DNA of 64,000 nt from Candidatus Uhrbacteria bacterium (lineage in GTDB: Bacteria > Patescibacteriota > Patescibacteriia > UBA9934), in contig CAWGHH010000002.1 of NCBI GenBank assembly GCA_963822405.1, positions 266,766 through 330,765 of the forward strand, in the 5' to 3' direction. The notes under the pieces were generated by a model. It was given only the letters and a program-made list of their open reading frames with translations. It made no database searches and was not told the origin of the DNA. The translations under genes and the position numbers were made by a program. Of the stretch, positions 3,002 to 62,906 are shown in pieces. Numbering within the stretch: position 1 is the first letter of the stretch; every line of letters begins with the position of its first letter.

Positions 3002-5932
3002 ATGTCTGATCTTCTCGAAGGCCTGAACCCAGAACAACTCGCGGCCGTGACCCATGGCGAAGGTCCGCTCATGATTATTGCGGGGGCGGGAACGGGGAAG
3101 ACAAAGGTGGTGACCACGCGCATTGCGTGGTTGATTGACCAGAAACTCGCCGAGCCGAATGACATTCTCGCGCTGACGTTTACTGACAAGGCAGCGAATG
3201 AAATGGAGGAACGAGTCGACCGTCTTTTGCCGATGGGTTATCTCGATCTCAACATTTCCACCTTTCACTCTTTTTGCGAAAAGGTTTTGCGTGAACATGG
3301 AATTCATATTGGTATTCCGTCGGACTTCAAGTTGTATACCGAGGTTGATTGTTGGTTGCTCATGCGTCGCAACCTTGATAGATTCGAGCTCGACTATTTC
3401 AAACCGCGTGGTTCGCCAACAAAATTCTTGCGACAACTACTTTCTCATTTTTCGAAGTGTAAGGACGAGGGTATCTCCCCCGAGAAATATTCTATTGCAG
3501 TTGAAGAACTCGCAAAGGTTTTGTCGAAGGGTCCAGCAATGCTCGACGAGGACAAGCTCGAAATACAAAAATGGCAGGAACTATCCGGCGCTTACGCCAT
3601 GTACGAGACACTCTTATCCGAACAGCACGCTATCGATTTCGGCGGCTTGCTTCTATTAGCGCTTGAGTTATTCAGAACTCGACCAAATGTCCTAGCGGAA
3701 TATCTCGCGCGATTCAAGTACGTTATTGTCGACGAGTTTCAAGACACAAACAGCATTCAATATGCGCTCGTCAAATTGTTAACTGGTCCAAAGCGCAATG
3801 TTACGGTCGTGGGCGACGACGATCAAGCAATCTACAAGTTTCGTGGCGCCGCCCTCGCCAATATTTTAGAGTTTAGAACTGACTACCCGGATACAGCGCG
3901 TGTTGTGCTTACCAGAAACTATAGAAGTGGCGCGACAATTCTCGACGCTGCACATAAACTTATTCAGACGAATAATCCTCATCGTTTAGAAGCGAGCGAA
4001 GGTTTATCAAAAAAACTACAATCGCAAATTGAACATGCAGGTCTCGTCCATCACCTTCACTGCGCAACAGCTGTCGAGGAAGTCGAATCCGTCATCAACG
4101 AAATTATTGCTAAGCACGAAAACGGGGAAGGGGACTGGAACGATTTTGTAATTCTCGCACGCTCGAATGATGCAGCTGATCCGTTTCTCGAAGCCCTTGA
4201 GCGAGTTGGCGTTCCGTATCACTTCGTGGCCATGTCTGGTTTGTACACGAAACCGATTATCCTAGACTCGATGGCTTACATGCGCGTAGTGTACGAGCCG
4301 TATAACTCGCCAGCGATGTATCGAATCCTGAGTCATCCTCGTCTCGGCCTCACCGAGTCCGATCTTTCAGCGTTAATGCAATATGTGCGCAAGAAAAATG
4401 GCGCAGCAATTATTGACGGCATGCGTTCGCTCGGTCAGGAAGCTGGAGTGTCACTCGATGGGTCAACTCGACTAAACGAGATTGTTCGAATTATCGAAAA
4501 CCTACGGGACAAAGCAAAGCGTTTGCCAGTCACCGAGCTGTTCGTTTCGGTTCTCAAAGATACCGGTCTACTCGGCGACATGCGAATCATGCCTGAAGCT
4601 GATCAGCAGGAAGTATTCCGACACCTAGAAGGTTTCCTGGCTCGCCTGAAGCGCTACGTTGTCGCCAGTCCGGACAATAAGCTGTTACCCGGCTTCTTAG
4701 AGGAGTTCGACGCTGAACGCGAGGCAGGGGAGGCTGGTGGTTTGAAGGCTGACACCGAGGAGGGGCCCGATGTCGTCAATGTCATGACTATTCACGCCGC
4801 GAAGGGCCTCGAGTTCAAATATGTGTTTGTGGTGAACATGATCGAGCAACGTTTCCCCTCAGTTTCGCGCTCCGACCAACTTCCTCTCCCCCCAACGCTC
4901 GTCCGCAAAGTCGATGCCGCTCTGGACGATCACGTCGCCGAGGAACGTCGTCTGTTCTATGTGGCCATGACTCGCGCTAAGCAGGGTTTGTATTTATGTT
5001 CGGCGGAAGATTACGGCGGTACTCGTAAGCGAAAACCGTCGAGGTTCCTCGCCGAGTTAGGTTACGAAGTGCAACCGACCGAAAAGAAAAAGAAAATGAG
5101 CACGGACGATATTCTCGATGAACGAGGCAAGATTGTAACCAGTTCCGGCGAGGCCGATATCAAATTGCCGACAAAATTCTCTTTCTCTCAAGTCGCCGCT
5201 TTCGGTTCATGTCCTCTCCAGTACAAGTACGCTCATATTCTCAAAATCCCGACGTTTGGCCGTCATCAGTTCAGCTTCGGCCAAAGCATGCACTTAACCC
5301 TTGAAAAGTTCGTCAAAGAAATGCTCCCCGCAGAATCAACAACCCTTTCTAGCCCTTTATTGCCCTTTCGAACCTTTCCTTCACTCCGTCAGCTTCTCGA
5401 TATGTACGCTGCATCATTCATCGACGAATGGTACCCAGATTCGAAGACTCGTGAACAGTATCGTCAGCAGGGCGTCGATTCTCTCACAGAGTTCCATCGT
5501 AAAGTGGTCGAGAATCAACCTAAGCCGATTATCCTTGAGGCCGGCTTCACTCTAAAGATCGGCGACATCTTGATGAAAGGACGTATCGACAGAATCGACG
5601 CGGTCGAAGGTGGCGTTGAGATTATCGACTACAAGACCGGCCGGTTCAAAGAAAAGCTGGATTGGGATGACCGTCGCCAGCTGATCTTGTACGCTCTGGC
5701 CGCTGAGCAATGTTTCAATCCGCCCCTCGTCGTCAAAGCGCTAACGTACTATTATGTTGAGACAAACGAAACGATGAGTTTTGCCCCAACTGACAAGGAC
5801 AAGGAAAAACTACTAGACGAGATCAAAGAAACCGTCGGCGCAATTAGAACGAGTACGTTCGAGCCGAAACCGGGACCATTTACTTGTAAGTATTGTGACT
5901 TTAAGGACATTTGCCCGTTTTCGCAACAATAA
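3002..5932 (+). CDS. UvrD/PcrA-family helicase fused to a C-terminal PD-(D/E)XK (RecB/Cas4/AddB-like) Fe-S nuclease domain
   Basis: 976 aa. Walker A AGAGTGKT, VDEFQDTN, VGDDDQAIYKFRGA and TRNYRSG helicase motifs. C-terminal nuclease core DRIDAVEGGVEIIDYKTG plus Cys cluster GSCPLQY...CKYCDFKDICPF. Confidence 0.85.
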   Translation: MSDLLEGLNPEQLAAVTHGEGPLMIIAGAGTGKTKVVTTRIAWLIDQKLAEPNDILALTFTDKAANEMEERVDRLLPMGYLDLNISTFHSFCEKVLREHGIHIGIPSDFKLYTEVDCWLLMRRNLDRFELDYFKPRGSPTKFLRQLLSHFSKCKDEGISPEKYSIAVEELAKVLSKGPAMLDEDKLEIQKWQELSGAYAMYETLLSEQHAIDFGGLLLLALELFRTRPNVLAEYLARFKYVIVDEFQDTNSIQYALVKLLTGPKRNVTVVGDDDQAIYKFRGAALANILEFRTDYPDTARVVLTRNYRSGATILDAAHKLIQTNNPHRLEASEGLSKKLQSQIEHAGLVHHLHCATAVEEVESVINEIIAKHENGEGDWNDFVILARSNDAADPFLEALERVGVPYHFVAMSGLYTKPIILDSMAYMRVVYEPYNSPAMYRILSHPRLGLTESDLSALMQYVRKKNGAAIIDGMRSLGQEAGVSLDGSTRLNEIVRIIENLRDKAKRLPVTELFVSVLKDTGLLGDMRIMPEADQQEVFRHLEGFLARLKRYVVASPDNKLLPGFLEEFDAEREAGEAGGLKADTEEGPDVVNVMTIHAAKGLEFKYVFVVNMIEQRFPSVSRSDQLPLPPTLVRKVDAALDDHVAEERRLFYVAMTRAKQGLYLCSAEDYGGTRKRKPSRFLAELGYEVQPTEKKKKMSTDDILDERGKIVTSSGEADIKLPTKFSFSQVAAFGSCPLQYKYAHILKIPTFGRHQFSFGQSMHLTLEKFVKEMLPAESTTLSSPLLPFRTFPSLRQLLDMYAASFIDEWYPDSKTREQYRQQGVDSLTEFHRKVVENQPKPIILEAGFTLKIGDILMKGRIDRIDAVEGGVEIIDYKTGRFKEKLDWDDRRQLILYALAAEQCFNPPLVVKALTYYYVETNETMSFAPTDKDKEKLLDEIKETVGAIRTSTFEPKPGPFTCKYCDFKDICPFSQQ

Positions 5933-5934
5933 CT

Positions 5935-6246
5935 ATGCGCACCTTCGGCAGTCTCACAGACTCGGTTCTCGCTCGCCATGGAATTGGCAAGCAGGTTTTG
6001 GCTGCGCAAGTTGTGCGGAAGGGGAATGAGAAACTGCTCGCCCTTATCCCACAGGAAATTCAACGCGACATAAAGGTTCTAAGCTATAAGGACAACGAGT
6101 TAACTATCGCGTGCCAAAACCCAACCGCGCGTTACGAGGCCGACGCTGTCGCGCCTAAGCTCGCACGCGCACTAGAGGAAGACTTCCCGTCGCTTTCTCT
6201 GGTTTGTGTGGCTAAGCTTCGTCCCGAGGCGTTTATGGATATATAA
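5935..6246 (+). CDS. Possible DUF721/DciA-like small protein
   Basis: Internal Met start MRTFGSLTDSVLARHGIGKQVLAAQVVRK...ELTIACQNPTARYEADAVAPKLARALEEDFP. Pattern is reminiscent of DUF721, weak. The track ORF starts earlier at 5911 and overlaps the uvrD end. Confidence 0.35.
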   Translation: MRTFGSLTDSVLARHGIGKQVLAAQVVRKGNEKLLALIPQEIQRDIKVLSYKDNELTIACQNPTARYEADAVAPKLARALEEDFPSLSLVCVAKLRPEAFMDI

Positions 6247-6256
6247 TGCGGGTGCT

Positions 6257-6649
6257 ATGAACCTTCGACAGTACATCACCATCTTGGCTCTTGGCACCTT
6301 TGTCGCTCTAGCAGCGTGGGGTGTGACGTTAACGTCGATCGACCCATTCACCGCTGGCCCACTCGCGCTCGTCATCTTCTATGTCACACTCGGCAGCGGG
6401 CTTGTCGGCCTTCTCACGATTATCGGTACGGTTTTACGAGCAAGCCGTTTCCCCGAAGCCGGCGCAAGCGTGGCCGTTATTCGCTCATTCCGCCAGGGCG
6501 TATTTCTTAGTGGTTTAATTCTCGTTTCACTTGTTCTCATGAGCCTTGGGATGTTCTCGACGCCCGTCCTTCTTGTCATGATCGGTATCCTGGCGCTCCT
6601 TGAATTTTTCTTTCTCATTTTTCAAGACAGGAGAACGATTGAATCTTAG
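6257..6649 (+). CDS. Membrane protein, about 130 aa
   Basis: MNLRQYITILALGTFVALAAWGVTL... with 4 hydrophobic helices. Chosen start is internal to track ORF 6206. Confidence 0.45.
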   Translation: MNLRQYITILALGTFVALAAWGVTLTSIDPFTAGPLALVIFYVTLGSGLVGLLTIIGTVLRASRFPEAGASVAVIRSFRQGVFLSGLILVSLVLMSLGMFSTPVLLVMIGILALLEFFFLIFQDRRTIES

Positions 6650-6705
6650 CCACAGGCCTTCTTGTTCAGGATGCTAGGCCATGGTGAAATGCGAACGACC
6701 GAACT

Positions 6706-7746
6706 ATGTTTAGTCGAATTTTTGGGCGGTTTTCAAAGGATATTGCGATTGACCTGGGAACGTCTAATACCAGGGTTTTTGTGCGTGAGCGCGGCATCGT
6801 CATGCACGAGCCGTCGATTGTGGCGGTTAATACTCGAACAAATCACATTTTGGCGGTTGGGACATCGGCCAAAGACATGCTCGGCAAGACGCCACCGCAC
6901 ATTGTGACCACTCGACCACTTACAAAGGGTGTTATTTCGGACTTCGAGGTAACAGAAAAAATGTTGAAATATTTCGTCGACAAGGTTCACGAAGATACTT
7001 TTACTTTAGTACCTCGACCACGCATGGTGATGACCGTGCCACTTGAAATTACCGAAGTAGAACGCAAGGCGGTAGAAGATGCTGCTCTTTCGGCTGGCGC
7101 ACGTGAAGCATTTCTAGTCGAGGCACCACTCGCGGCCGCTATTGGTGCCGGCTTACCGGTCGAGGATTCCGTTGGCAGCATGATTGTGGACATTGGCGGG
7201 GGGACGACTGAAATCGCTGTTGTCGCGCTTGGCGGTATTGTCACATGGAAATCGCTAACGGTTGCTGGCGACGAGATGACGAAGAGTGTCACTCAATACG
7301 CCCGTGATGTTTTCAATTTATTAATTGGTGAACGAGTGGCGGAAGAAATTAAGTGGCGAATCGGCACAACGATGGATCTTGGTACGCCGATGGAAATGGA
7401 AATGCGTGGACGATATTTGATTAATGGATTGCCACGGCAAGTGATGGTCACCGACGCGCAAATTCGTGAGGCAATCTATCGCAATGTACAGATGATTGTT
7501 GAAAACATTAAAGCGACTATTGAGGTTACGCCTCCAGAAATTGTCGCCGATATTTATGAACGAGGCATCGTGCTTGCTGGTGGTGGGGCACTATTAAAAG
7601 GCATCGACAAAACCATCGCTAGAGAAACCGACATCCCAGTTCGGATTGCTGATGATCCATTGACTTGCACTGTTCGAGGTGCCGGCGCATTGCTTGATAG
7701 ACCTGAATTCTTGAAAGATATTTCTCTGCCCACTGCTAATAACTAG
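6706..7746 (+). CDS. mreB: Rod shape-determining protein MreB
   Basis: 346 aa. Actin-fold motifs IDLGTSNTRV, VDIGGGTTEIAV, LAGGGALLKGIDK. Confidence 0.95.
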   Translation: MFSRIFGRFSKDIAIDLGTSNTRVFVRERGIVMHEPSIVAVNTRTNHILAVGTSAKDMLGKTPPHIVTTRPLTKGVISDFEVTEKMLKYFVDKVHEDTFTLVPRPRMVMTVPLEITEVERKAVEDAALSAGAREAFLVEAPLAAAIGAGLPVEDSVGSMIVDIGGGTTEIAVVALGGIVTWKSLTVAGDEMTKSVTQYARDVFNLLIGERVAEEIKWRIGTTMDLGTPMEMEMRGRYLINGLPRQVMVTDAQIREAIYRNVQMIVENIKATIEVTPPEIVADIYERGIVLAGGGALLKGIDKTIARETDIPVRIADDPLTCTVRGAGALLDRPEFLKDISLPTANN

Positions 7747-57257: not shown

Positions 57258-57334
57258 TGGTGCGCTCAGGACGATTCGAACGTCCGACCCCTTCCTTCGG
57301 AGGGAAGTACTCTATCCAGCTGAGCTATGAGCGC
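57258..57334 (-). tRNA. tRNA-Arg (anticodon CCG), CCA encoded
   Basis: Minus-strand GCGCTCATAGCTCAGCTGGATAGAGTACTTCCCTCCGAAGGAAGGGGTCGGACGTTCGAATCGTCCTGAGCGCACCA. Cloverleaf with anticodon loop CTCCGAA. Close to E. coli tRNA-Arg(CCG). Confidence 0.9.
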
Positions 57335-57753
57335 GTCATTATGTACATTGCCACACCTGAAGCGACCGATACATTGAGCGATTGTTTCTTCGCCATGGGA
57401 ATCGTCACGAGTCCGTCGAGCAGTCCTCGAGCCACCTCGTCTATTCCCTCAACTTCGTTTCCAAGCACAAGAGCAATCTTCTGTGCCGTCGTGTTTTCGA
57501 TCGGCCGGCCACCCGTTTCCAAACCAAGAACAGAATAACCCGCTTCCTTGAGTTTCGCAATAATGTCGGTCAGCTCCCCCGTCTCCCAACTTACCAACTG
57601 TTCAGCGCCAAGCGCTACTTTTGCTATCTCTTTTCTGGGCGGAGTTGCCGTAAAACCAGTTAAGTACAGTTTCTCAATACCAAAGGCTGCAGCGTTTCTA
57701 AAGATTGATCCAATATTATGCAGGCTTCTAATGTTATGCGCGATGATAATCAT
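57325..57753 (-). CDS. SpoU/TrmH-family RNA 2'-O-methyltransferase
   Basis: 142 aa. IIIAHNIRSLHNIGSIFRNAAAFG, LVLGNEVEGI, SLNVSVASGVAMY (SPOUT knot motifs). Last 10 nt overlap the tRNA 5' end. Confidence 0.7.
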   Translation of the reverse strand: MIIIAHNIRSLHNIGSIFRNAAAFGIEKLYLTGFTATPPRKEIAKVALGAEQLVSWETGELTDIIAKLKEAGYSVLGLETGGRPIENTTAQKIALVLGNEVEGIDEVARGLLDGLVTIPMAKKQSLNVSVASGVAMYIMTRS

Positions 57754-58174: not shown

Positions 58175-58287
58175 GAGACATGCCTAGGCATGCAACCGTC
58201 ACCACGCGTCCGCGCGGCTATAGGCCCCGCGGACGCTTCCCTTTTAGATTGACTTTCCCAAAAAAATTAGCTATCCTCAGCAAATCT

Positions 58288-59439
58288 ATGAAATGTCCTA
58301 ATCCCGAACGTTGCGGCTCTTGTGGCTGGTCTCATATCTCCTACGAGAAACAGCTCAAGCAAAAGCTCTCTGATATCAACGGTTCTTTTGCCATTAAAAA
58401 ATTAGATTTGAAGGTCGAGGAAATCGCCGCCTCTCCTATCACCCATCACTACCGTAATCGAATGGATTTTGTAATTGATTGGCAGGGCAACGTCGGCCTG
58501 CGTGAAAAGGGCAAGTGGTGGAGCGTGATCGACAATCATCCTTGTTTCATTGCTGACCAAAAAATCGAAGACGCGTTTTTCATCACCCGCGACTGGGCAA
58601 AGAAATGTGGTCTATCGTTCTGCGACCGAAAAGCTAACACTGGGTTCTTGCGCTACGCCGTCATTCGTTCAACGACTCTCGGCGAAACCATGATCATCAT
58701 CGTCACCAGCGCACCAAAGGATGCGGACGAAGAAGCAGCCGCCAAAAAAGCGCTCGAGGAATTAACTGTCTTATCGAAAGCAACCACGGTGGTCTGGTCA
58801 ATCAACCACACCATTAGCGATGTATCGTTCGGCGACGAACTTAGAACCATCTCTGGTCCTGGTGTTATCGAGGAAACAATTGCCGGTTATCGCTACAAGA
58901 TCTCTCCAAACGCGTTCTTCCAAACCAACCCACACGGTGCGGCGCAATTATTGGATACTGTTCGCGAATACGCGACCAGTGGGTCGACAGAGACGTCGAC
59001 CCCTACATCGGAACAAACGTTATTGGATCTCTACTGCGGAACTGGGTTCTTCGCTGTTGCCCTGGCCGCCTCATTCAAGAAAACAATCGGCGTAGAAATG
59101 GTCAAGGAAGCGATCGTGGACGCTAAAGTCAACGCAGAATTGAACAATGCAATGGTCGAGTTTCACGACGTAAAAACCGAAGACTTCGACTGGATGAAAA
59201 TTGGTGCTGACGTTGTCATCCTTGATCCACCACGTGGTGGCATGGTGGACAAAGCCCTCCAGGATATAATTGCCGCCAAGCCCGAAACCATTGTCTACGT
59301 CTCCTGTAACTACAAAAACTTCGCCCGCGAAATGGTGATCCTGCAAAAGTACTACGACGTCGAAGCCATGCGAGCTATAGACATGTTCCCCCACACGCCA
59401 CATGTGGAGCTGGTAACTAAGCTTGTGCGTAAGGTCTAG
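58288..59439 (+). CDS. 23S rRNA (uracil-5)-methyltransferase RlmD/RumA family
   Basis: Start MKCPNPERCGSCGW (Fe-S Cys cluster). SAM motifs LLDLYCGTGFF and ILDPPRGG. Contains a repeat-derived SGSTETSTPTSEQ insert. Confidence 0.8.
   Translation: MKCPNPERCGSCGWSHISYEKQLKQKLSDINGSFAIKKLDLKVEEIAASPITHHYRNRMDFVIDWQGNVGLREKGKWWSVIDNHPCFIADQKIEDAFFITRDWAKKCGLSFCDRKANTGFLRYAVIRSTTLGETMIIIVTSAPKDADEEAAAKKALEELTVLSKATTVVWSINHTISDVSFGDELRTISGPGVIEETIAGYRYKISPNAFFQTNPHGAAQLLDTVREYATSGSTETSTPTSEQTLLDLYCGTGFFAVALAASFKKTIGVEMVKEAIVDAKVNAELNNAMVEFHDVKTEDFDWMKIGADVVILDPPRGGMVDKALQDIIAAKPETIVYVSCNYKNFAREMVILQKYYDVEAMRAIDMFPHTPHVELVTKLVRKV
58980..59011. repeat. GGGTCGAC-hairpin repeat, copy inside rlmD coding sequence
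   Basis: tgggtcgacagagacgtcgacccctacatcgg, versus tgggtcgacagaggcgtcgacccctactctg at 61040-61070 (28/31 identical). Internal 8-bp palindrome GGGTCGAC/GTCGACCC. Confidence 0.6.
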
Positions 59440-59450
59440 CCTCTCGGCGT

Positions 59451-59581
59451 AAGGGTTTGGCTCGCCCGTAGGGCTACGCCCGAGGGCGCCGCCAAACCCT
59501 TAACACCAAAACCCCGGAGTAAAATCCGGGGTTTTGGTTTGTAAATAGAAAAACCCCCCTCGGCGTATGCTCAGAGGGGGG
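59451..59581. terminator. Cluster of three strong hairpins (terminators for convergent rlmD and uppS)
   Basis: 11-bp stem aagggtttggc/gccaaaccctt enclosing two GC hairpins. aaaaccccgga-gtaaaa-tccggggtttt. cccccctc-ggcgtatgctca-gagggggg. Confidence 0.6.
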
Positions 59582-60213
59582 TTGAGGTATTCTTGCCTGT
59601 TGTTCGTGCCTTTCGTCGGCCATGGTCAGGTGACCAACCTCCGTCAGTGGAGGCTTTCTCGAATTGTTTTCGCATCGCATGATGCTCAATGACTTTCGTC
59701 AGAACTTCACGCGATCGAAGGGTGAGAATAGACGGCCCCCGTAGAGGCTCAACCCGCATAGTTGGTGCATTGGCCTCCAACCTTTATGCGCACGTCTTCT
59801 TGAGACGGCGGGGACTGGCGCTGTCCATTAGGACCAACGTTCCGCGAACTAATTTGACCCGGCAGAGTTATTCATGAAGTGATAGTTCGTCGGGTTTTGG
59901 ACCCGAGAATCGCTGCTAGCAGCCGAACCATCGCTCTTCTGCTGACTCGATCTCGAACTCGACTCTCGAGCTCGGACACGCGCCCTGGCACAGCCCTGGC
60001 GGCGCATTCTGTCTTCGACGTTCTTGAACGCAGGCCTTGATCACGAGGTATTGCTCCCCGCACAAATAGGCAATACTGCGCTTTGCTCAAGTCCGCTTTA
60101 TGGTCGTTCCACGCCACGGACAAAAAGTAGCATACACCAAAATAGCACTTTTGTCAAATAAATACAGTATAAATAGCCAAAGAAAGTTGAAAAAGTTAAA
60201 AAGGTTAAAAACG

Positions 60214-60996
60214 TTATTTCCCGAATCGGCGCTGTCTCGCTTGGAACGATCGAAGCGCTCGAAGAAAATCTATTCGTCTAAAAGCTGGCCAGTTTACGTC
60301 GAGGAAATAGTATTCGGAGTAGGCGGCTTGCCAAAGGAGGAAACCGGAAAGCCGAACCTCGCCGCTCGTGCGAATAATAAAGTCAGGATCGGGCACGTTG
60401 CCGCTGTATAGATGCGTCGAAAGTGATTCCTCGGTCAGTCCGTCGATCGCGTTGCGTAATGACTCCCCCGCTTTTTCAGCCGTCGACAAATACGCCTTAG
60501 CCGCGTCGACAATCTCCTCGCGTCCACCGTAACCGAGAGCCAGCTGAACGAGCATGCCCTTGCGGTTGGCGGTTGTTTGTTCGAGCTTCGCTAACGCCTC
60601 ACGTACTTCGGTCGGCATTAAATCAATTCGACCGATAGCTCTCACTCGAATATCGTTCTTTATAAAATCTTCATCCACCATCATCGCCTTAGCTTGCTCG
60701 ATAATAAGATCCATCAGTCCTTTTACTTCTGCTGGTTCTCGCGAAAAATTTTGCGTGCTAAATCCCCAAACTGTGACGACGGGAATCTTAAATTCAATAC
60801 ACCAAGAAAATAGTTGTTTCACTTTCTTCGCCCCATACTTATGTCCTTCGGCTACCGGTAGACCGAGCGACTTGGCGTAGCGTCGGTTACCGTCAAGAAT
60901 AACTCCAAGATGCTTCGGCGCTGGACCGAGCAGAAGTTTCTTGGCGAGACGTTTCTCGTAAACTAGGTAGAGAATGTACTTGAGTATTTGTTTCAT
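60214..60996 (-). CDS. uppS: Undecaprenyl-diphosphate synthase (isoprenyl transferase)
   Basis: HLGVILDGNRRYAKS, VTVWGFSTQNFSR, RTSGEVRLSGFLLWQAAYSE. Start set at MKQ; the track ORF begins at TTG 61038. Confidence 0.9.
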   Translation of the reverse strand: MKQILKYILYLVYEKRLAKKLLLGPAPKHLGVILDGNRRYAKSLGLPVAEGHKYGAKKVKQLFSWCIEFKIPVVTVWGFSTQNFSREPAEVKGLMDLIIEQAKAMMVDEDFIKNDIRVRAIGRIDLMPTEVREALAKLEQTTANRKGMLVQLALGYGGREEIVDAAKAYLSTAEKAGESLRNAIDGLTEESLSTHLYSGNVPDPDFIIRTSGEVRLSGFLLWQAAYSEYYFLDVNWPAFRRIDFLRALRSFQARQRRFGK

Positions 60997-61039
60997 AGAA
61001 GAAGGCCCGGCAGGTTTCCCCACCAGGCCCTTCATCAAA

Positions 61040-61070
61040 TGGGTCGACAGAGGCGTCGACCCCTACTCTG
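61040..61070. repeat. GGGTCGAC-hairpin repeat, copy in the uppS 5' leader
   Basis: See 58980-59011. Lies 1-2 nt upstream of the uppS track start. Confidence 0.6.
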
Positions 61071-62823: not shown

Positions 62824-62906
62824 AAAACAAAACAGTCAGTACTGCTTCGGAAATGGAGTCGGATTACCTCCTGGCATTTCCTCAGCAGTACTGACTGTTT
62901 TGTTTT
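62824..62906. terminator. 22-bp perfect inverted repeat (bidirectional terminator) between era and a convergent lipoprotein gene
   Basis: aaaacaaaacagtcagtactgc ... gcagtactgactgttttgtttt, with a 39-nt loop containing a nested ggaaatg/catttcc pair. A/T runs on both sides. Confidence 0.7.

Follow-up and report, generated by a model that had tools for sequence, protein, structure and literature searches.

What occupies the 774 bp between two convergent genes, an rlmD-like gene on the plus strand and uppS on the minus strand, at positions 59440 to 60213 of the 64,000-nucleotide (nt) stretch of DNA analyzed here (the window)? The window belongs to a Patescibacteria (CPR) genome that lies close to Uhrbacteria-type metagenome-assembled genomes, and CPR genomes are tiny and densely packed. 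An earlier note on this DNA had described the gap as GC rich, with a cluster of hairpins and no credible open reading frame (ORF), and had offered an unrecognized noncoding RNA (ncRNA), a decayed gene, or the remnant of a mobile element as explanations. Here, we report that most of the gap is probably an independent, unannotated gene for a structured ncRNA (about 575 nt) that would be read from the minus strand, from about position 60121 to about position 59549.

Known RNA families were searched with Rfam 15 (4,227 models, including RNase P, tmRNA, SRP, 6S, OLE, ROOL, GOLLD, HEARO, raiA, riboswitches, and ribozymes). Gathering mode returned no match on the window but missed a 63.8-bit tRNA and is thus unreliable, so E-value mode was relied on. 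Related loci were gathered with UppS as the anchor; all are from one narrow clade, and they hold 15 RNA genes. The ends of the RNA were predicted, the 5′ start from promoter geometry and the 3′ end from the terminator. Feature coordinates are collected in Table 1.

Table 1. Features of the uppS-rlmD gap and its two neighbors (window positions)
Feature	Positions	Strand	Basis or remark
rlmD-like/TrmA-family methyltransferase ORF	58180-59439	+	Pfam PF05958 on homologues
Nested GC-rich hairpin	59450-59502	+	−38.4 kcal/mol, z −4.6; adjoins rlmD stop codon
Predicted bidirectional terminator (A-tract, 14-bp stem, T-tract)	59505-59538	both	−26.4 kcal/mol; z −5.2 (+), −5.9 (−)
Predicted intrinsic terminator of the RNA, CCCCCCUCUGAGCAUACGCCGAGGGGGG then UUUUU	59549-59581	−	Hairpin plus U5; fold versus shuffles
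Small hairpin CCUCC-ACUGAC-GGAGG	59638-59653	−	High pair probability
Module 1 (stem-loop 59669-59719)	59664-59727	−	Covariance-model match, 76.2 bits, E 1e-14
Variable middle region, GC 0.56	59720-60090	−	Unalignable save for shared blocks
Predicted 5′ end (about 60121) and 5′-proximal hairpin GUCCG...CGGAC, preceded by leader ACUYUUYGU	60091-60121	−	Recurs in relatives
Predicted −10 hexamer TATGCT (spacer 17 nt)	60129-60134	−	Same promoter prediction, score 10/12
Predicted −35 hexamer TTGACA	60152-60157	−	Promoter score 10/12
uppS	60214-61038	−	Pfam PF01255 on homologues

The GC content of the gap is raised, as had been said, but only mildly (0.523, or 0.555 once the AT-rich promoter end is excluded; the window as a whole has 0.481). 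On both strands, the gap holds only ORFs of at most 83 amino acids (aa), in agreement with the earlier reading. The hairpin cluster is real as well, with three strong hairpins at 59450 to 59583 that all fold far better than shuffled sequences; what had been overlooked is the role of the cluster in ending transcription, the strand of the unit, and the promoter. The nested hairpin next to rlmD has no U-run downstream. In L007 and L019 only the outer stem is present, and the window copy is about 28 nt longer, which suggests that a hairpin was inserted within a hairpin; the structure probably belongs to the 3′ end of rlmD, as a 3′-end stabilizer or a pause site. The second stem (59505 to 59538) has an A-run on one side and a T-run on the other, which marks it as a bidirectional terminator; it is kept as AAAACCCCGGA...TCCGGGG in L007, L018, L019, and L021 and would end rlmD transcripts while backing up the terminator of the RNA. 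The third hairpin (59552 to 59583; about −22 kcal/mol, −21.6 kcal/mol on the minus strand; z, −3.9 on the plus and −4.4 on the minus strand) has its U-run on the minus strand only, so a minus-strand transcript is the one that it would terminate, and equivalent terminators end every homologous RNA. A palindrome at 59626 to 59637, previously put forward as the closest candidate for an RNA signature, has a local fold z of −0.6, which is not significant.

At the other end of the gap, directly after the uppS stop codon, lies a predicted sigma-70-type promoter (TTGACA-17-TATGCT, 60157 to 60129); the region has three promoter-like sites in total, none of them on the plus strand. The candidate gene thus appears to have a promoter of its own and, on the same strand, a terminator of its own (hairpin plus U5), between which transcription would start and end. 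TTGAC[AG]-17-TAnnnT is kept in 14 of the 15 RNA genes, that is, in all 14 with a recognizable promoter after uppS (the −35 of L013 is degenerate), and 13 of these 14 promoters have an extended −10 (TGn), the exception being the window copy. In most relatives, a covarying hairpin with a T-run after it holds the −35 in its loop; this hairpin is evidently the uppS terminator, and termination of uppS and initiation of the RNA would therefore overlap. The window copy is missing this hairpin, and no clear uppS terminator is seen ahead of its promoter.

The pyrimidine-rich leader and the 5′ hairpin recur in L001b, L012, L021a, L001a, and L014, where the stems differ in sequence yet stay complementary. 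Folded as a whole, the transcript of about 575 nt has a z of −3.7 on the minus strand and −3.2 on the plus strand; since the plus strand folds almost as well, this value says little alone. The significance of the CCUCC/GGAGG hairpin is doubtful, as GGAGG is not enriched across the RNA family. A TTGAC-17 promoter of the type found at the RNA gene also lies upstream of rlmD in these genomes. As listed, the rlmD ORF is 419 aa long with an ATG at 58180, and its true start is probably an internal Met (MKCPNPERCGSC, about 58288); homologues begin at this Met, with a TTGAC-17-TATNNT promoter just upstream.

An RNA that always adjoins uppS in the same orientation and converges on rlmD could instead act in cis, as a long uppS 3′ untranslated region, a processed 3′-derived RNA, or an antisense regulator of rlmD made by terminator read-through, and in the window, where no obvious uppS terminator precedes the promoter, uppS transcripts could read through into the RNA. 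We consider such a cis-acting RNA very unlikely, given a dedicated and strongly conserved promoter, an uppS terminator hairpin just upstream of the RNA in most relatives, two consecutive terminators between the RNA and rlmD, and second tandem copies in L001 and L021 that are not beside uppS.

The convergent arrangement of uppS and rlmD is kept in relatives, with gaps from 0 to 34 nt up to about 2.2 kb. Promoter, RNA, and terminator stand directly after uppS in 13 distinct loci, which together hold the 15 RNA genes (about 320 to 660 nt), and the order uppS-RNA-rlmD is seen in L001, L002, L003, L007, L012, L013, L014, L016, L018, L021, L023, and L024. Two tandem units are present in each of L001 and L021. 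At least five relatives are missing the unit (L004, L005, L022, L149, and the P0010 locus), including L149, although its UppS is 86% identical to that of the window. Absence from close relatives and tandem copies in others mark the gene as accessory rather than housekeeping; judged from these loci, lineages gain, lose, and duplicate it over short evolutionary spans. As wholes, the RNAs are unalignable even where UppS is 83 to 88% identical.

Several of these loci have additional features. In L001, a 249-aa gene (4851 to 5600, minus strand), the product of which is a probable secreted, Cys-containing protein, lies between uppS and the two tandem RNA copies (5631 to 6895), so the site accepts insertions. 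L004 (4645 to 4740) and L005 (2478 to 2568), neither of which has the RNA gene, carry an element of about 90 nt with 11-bp inverted repeats (GACCCTGAACG...CGTTCAGGGTC), the interior of which lies in opposite orientations in the two loci, and a hairpin related to this element precedes the RNA promoter in L024. Hypothetical proteins are annotated over the homologous RNA loci in L021 (4325 to 4690, 121 aa) and L024 (4362 to 4637, 91 aa); both ORFs are probably spurious.

The Rfam covariance search that the earlier note had proposed was run, and it matched no known family in the region. In E-value mode (E up to 10, positions 59300 to 60350), there was no match in 59638 to 60213, and all matches at 59445 to 59637 (Termite-leu, ohsC, and rnk-leader) were at or below 30 bits, well below threshold. 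Because GC-rich stems and U-runs of terminators give weak Rfam leader and small RNA matches there, these three candidates were dismissed as terminator look-alikes at 59445 to 59581. In eight homologous loci searched at E up to 1, no match fell on the RNA. When the search was extended to the whole window (E up to 0.01), tRNA-Arg was the only match; this tRNA-Arg(CCG) (57261 to 57334, minus strand, 63.8 bits; 57258 to 57334 by ARAGORN) overlaps the last 10 nt or so of a SpoU-type methylase ORF (57325 to 57753, minus strand). ARAGORN found the same tRNA and no tmRNA in the whole window, and Rfam in E-value mode and ARAGORN together confirm that signatures of RNase P, tmRNA, and SRP RNA are lacking. 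The idea of a tRNA with a group I intron (PMC13011429) was rejected, with neither D-arm nor T-arm features at the ends of the RNA and no match to an intron or a tRNA. Searches of the literature found no description of the RNA.

Housekeeping RNAs are found in essentially every genome of a lineage, in single copy, and evolve slowly. CPR RNAs are often atypical, the size range of the present RNAs overlaps those of RNase P RNA and tmRNA, and RNase P, tmRNA, SRP, and 6S RNAs were not found elsewhere in the 64-kb window; these points would favor a highly divergent RNase P RNA, tmRNA, SRP RNA, or 6S RNA, missed by the standard models in this CPR lineage. Such an RNA is nonetheless exceedingly improbable, in view of the Rfam and ARAGORN results on the region and its homologues, the absence of the gene from five relatives, its duplication in two (L001 and L021), and a divergence far faster than that of any housekeeping RNA, such that the RNAs are unalignable at 85% UppS identity.

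One hairpin of the RNA, module 1, is shared across lineages. In the window it reads UUCG-(variable stem)-A-GUUC-UGAC-GAAA-GUCA-UU-GAGC-A-(stem)-G-CGAA, and across the family it consists of UUCG, a variable stem, an A/A internal loop, GYUC-UGRC-loop-GYCA-UU-GAGY, the return strand, and G-CGAA. It is present in 9 of the 15 RNAs, in each of which independent minimum-free-energy folds give the same hairpin of about 50 nt; in the other six (L003, L007, L013, L018, L024, and L001b), it was not found even with search filters off. In alignment A3, 88.3% of cells form standard pairs, versus 23 to 38% with the partners slid by 1 to 3 columns; both sides have changed in 9 of 20 pairs, and none of 500 shuffles reaches the covariation observed among the nine sequences. 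The uppS strand is favored by G-U pairs, by folding of the window copy (−24.9 kcal/mol, versus −16.1 kcal/mol for the reverse complement), and by the covariance model (45 to 76 bits in sense, 9.5 bits in antisense). Compensatory change thus supports a conserved structure for module 1 only, the support for the other helices coming from inspection. An unrecognized ncRNA, one of the options raised at the outset, is supported by these results: a predicted promoter and terminator, both kept in 13 related loci, bracket the minus-strand region, and one hairpin within it covaries.

Within module 1, the apical stem and the UU bulge are conserved in sequence, and the loop varies (GAAA, GAAG, UAAC, UACG, and others). 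Such a pattern, with stem and bulge conserved and the loop variable, typifies sites recognized by a protein or an RNA more than it does plain structural hairpins. A likeness of module 1 (AAGUUCUGAC, GCGAAA) to helix 70/71 of 23S rRNA was not used, as it covers about 10 nt only and is not colinear.

Module 1 also bears on whether the gap is largely a nonfunctional spacer, in which only the terminators and the promoter matter (for instance, by insulating the convergent uppS and rlmD), the rest is neutral filler with rapid turnover, and module 1 is incidental or of an attenuator type. The middle region is indeed unalignable between genomes with 83 to 88% UppS identity, RNA length ranges from 320 to 660 nt, 6 of the 15 copies have no module 1, and close relatives live without the whole unit. 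Neutral filler is still unlikely, however, as the pairing of module 1 is kept by compensatory changes across lineages with only 68 to 72% UppS identity, the module is more conserved between the window and L021 (88% identical) than the flanking coding DNA (72 to 81%), and other modules are also common to several lineages. Moreover, small CPR genomes seldom keep 500 nt of filler, and the site shrinks to 0 to 34 nt in relatives.

The other shared modules are distributed as a mosaic. A 35-nt block (59962 to 59996) is common to the window and L001b, GAAGACAG (60009 to 60016) to the window and L007, and CGGGUGNUCGGGAAC to L001a and L012. A hairpin with the form ACGUGU-loop-ACACGU, together with hairpins upstream of it, occurs in L001a, L002, L007, L012, L016, and L018, and the place of this block relative to module 1 is not constant, being 5′ in some RNAs and 3′ in others. 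The RNA family would accordingly be united by its promoter, its position, and overlapping modules and not by one common core.

Patchy presence, tandem copies, and mosaic content would all be explained if the gap were the remnant or landing pad of a mobile element (MITE- or REP-like palindromes, or the scar of a prophage or integrative element). The RNA unit is both present and absent among close relatives and is tandem in L001 and L021, an extra gene has been inserted at the L001 site, and this genome has small GC-rich palindromic insertions (a 27-mer at 58980 and 61040, and the hairpin within a hairpin at 59450 to 59502). Against a mobile element, which was among the options of the earlier note and which we judge quite unlikely, the conserved modules were found nowhere else in about 247 kb from these genomes, the 64-kb window included, and were not found in the phage and viral data searched. 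A BLAST search of 50,697 phage genomes gave no match. A pattern scan of IMG/VR for module 1 gave at least 120 matches at chance level, and none of the 80 loci listed scored above 19 bits with the model. The gap has no integrase, transposase, or reverse transcriptase signal, no terminal repeats surround the unit, and its position beside uppS is fixed in every genome. A dispersed REP or MITE repeat in particular was rejected, with a single copy of module 1 in the 64-kb window by the covariance model and modules 2 to 4 found at the locus only in the approximately 247 kb; there was no other similarity to the gap within the window.

The 27-nt palindromic sequence TGGGTCGACAGAG[A/G]CGTCGACCCCTAC occurs twice in the window (58980 to 59006 and 61040 to 61066; 26 of 27 positions identical, 0 copies expected by chance). 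The first copy is in frame within rlmD, in a variable linker encoding ..SGSTETSTPT..., and the second is in the 36-nt gap just upstream of uppS. Among the other loci fetched, only L151, from the same organism as the window, has it. The 27-mer may be a small GC-rich palindromic insertion element, and the inner hairpin of 59450 to 59502 (about 28 nt) is a second case of a small palindromic insertion in this genome. The era GTPase gene is immediately followed by a 32-nt inverted repeat (94% complementary; 62824 to 62906) that probably forms a long hairpin terminator.

A small protein gene or pseudogene remnant was also considered. ORFs on the presumed transcribed strand reach 83 aa, gene callers have placed ORFs of 91 to 121 aa over the homologous regions in L024 and L021, and in several copies one frame of the module 1 core translates as LTKVIEH or LANAIEH (L-[TA]-x-[VA]-I-E in 7 of 9), so that the core stretch, taken alone, could also be read as a peptide. 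Nevertheless, ORFs of the gap have no Pfam match above threshold and no similarity to window ORFs of at least 100 aa (tblastn). The protein and pseudogene search suggested in the earlier note was carried out, and the two longest minus-strand ORFs (69 aa and 83 aa) have no homologue among 5.8 billion proteins. Peptide similarity between homologous RNAs is found in all six reading frames and not in one, as nucleotide conservation alone predicts. In the module 1 frame, ORFs range from 19 to 106 aa with no Shine-Dalgarno-linked start, L014 and L023 lack any start, and L001a and L021b are frameshifted; spacings from the core to the invariant UUCG and CGAA differ by non-multiples of three, and the core varies at first and second codon positions, which are base paired to one another. 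A small protein or a decayed gene is thus highly improbable and already largely refuted.

A new, clade-restricted, accessory structured ncRNA is the best reading of the gap; a spacer, a cis-acting RNA, a mobile-element scar, a small protein, and a housekeeping RNA all fit the data less well. The RNA would consist of a 5′ hairpin, a fast-evolving middle of lineage-specific hairpin modules, and the conserved module 1 of about 50 nt; in the best-supported view, constraint falls on the promoter and terminator, on the 5′ hairpin, and on module 1. It may act in trans, with module 1 recognized by a protein or by a second RNA and the variable modules as a scaffold or decoy. This role is proposed from the recognition-site-like pattern of module 1, and that of a protein-binding scaffold is only a guess. 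More broadly, and at somewhat less than an even chance, we propose an undescribed class of large (320 to 660 nt) accessory ncRNAs in a Patescibacteria (Uhrbacteria-like) clade, in which a fixed promoter and terminator cassette beside uppS would express a string of hairpin modules, interchangeable and subject to shuffling, gain, and loss between close relatives, as a modular scaffold or decoy tuned to lineage-specific partners (a host, phage, or cellular protein).

Few candidates for structured RNAs specific to CPR exist, and an RNA gene of 0.3 to 0.65 kb at this site would join them; our literature search found no paper on lineage-specific ncRNAs in Patescibacteria (CPR). The gene is kept at one locus with a consensus promoter, yet some relatives dispense with it, others have it in duplicate, and its content is mosaic. 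For a bacterial ncRNA, such a pattern of module shuffling is unusual, and it might reveal how new RNAs come to be assembled. The locus is now left blank or is misannotated as hypothetical ORFs, as in L021 and L024, and the covariance model of module 1 offers a direct way to find further members.

Among known systems, intrinsic and bidirectional terminators match the GC-rich stems with U-runs on the fitting strands at 59505 to 59538 and 59549 to 59581 but account for about 80 nt only and not for the approximately 540 nt upstream. Type I toxin-antitoxin loci are likewise intergenic, patchy, sometimes tandem, and highly structured at 300 to 500 nt, and the CCUCC/GGAGG hairpin of the window resembles Shine-Dalgarno sequestration; in contrast to them, the uppS-adjacent RNA has no conserved small hydrophobic ORF, no antisense promoter, and no enrichment of GGAGG (13 near the RNA 3′ end, versus 9 ± 3 expected, with no conserved small ORF downstream). 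With CsrB/CsrC and RsmX/Y/Z it shares an independent promoter and terminator, a string of hairpins, rapid turnover, and tandem copies in some genomes, whereas the conserved element here is a stem and bulge present once per RNA, not a loop motif, and the RNAs are longer. A Csr/Rsm-type sponge was rejected, as neither GGA (123 in the RNA family, versus 125 ± 9 in shuffles) nor ANGGA (36, versus 31.1 ± 5.3) is enriched and the GGAGG conservation seen by eye is not enriched either. OLE, ROOL, GOLLD, raiA, and HEARO are orphan large structured bacterial ncRNAs. The uppS-adjacent RNA differs from them in having no sequence or structure match in Rfam 15, a far narrower spread (one Patescibacteria subclade), a mosaic makeup with one helix set showing covariation, and a fixed site after uppS instead of in prophages or beside tRNAs, but it resembles them in being several hundred nucleotides long, ORF free, built of multiple hairpins, and patchily distributed, with a function that is not evident from its context.
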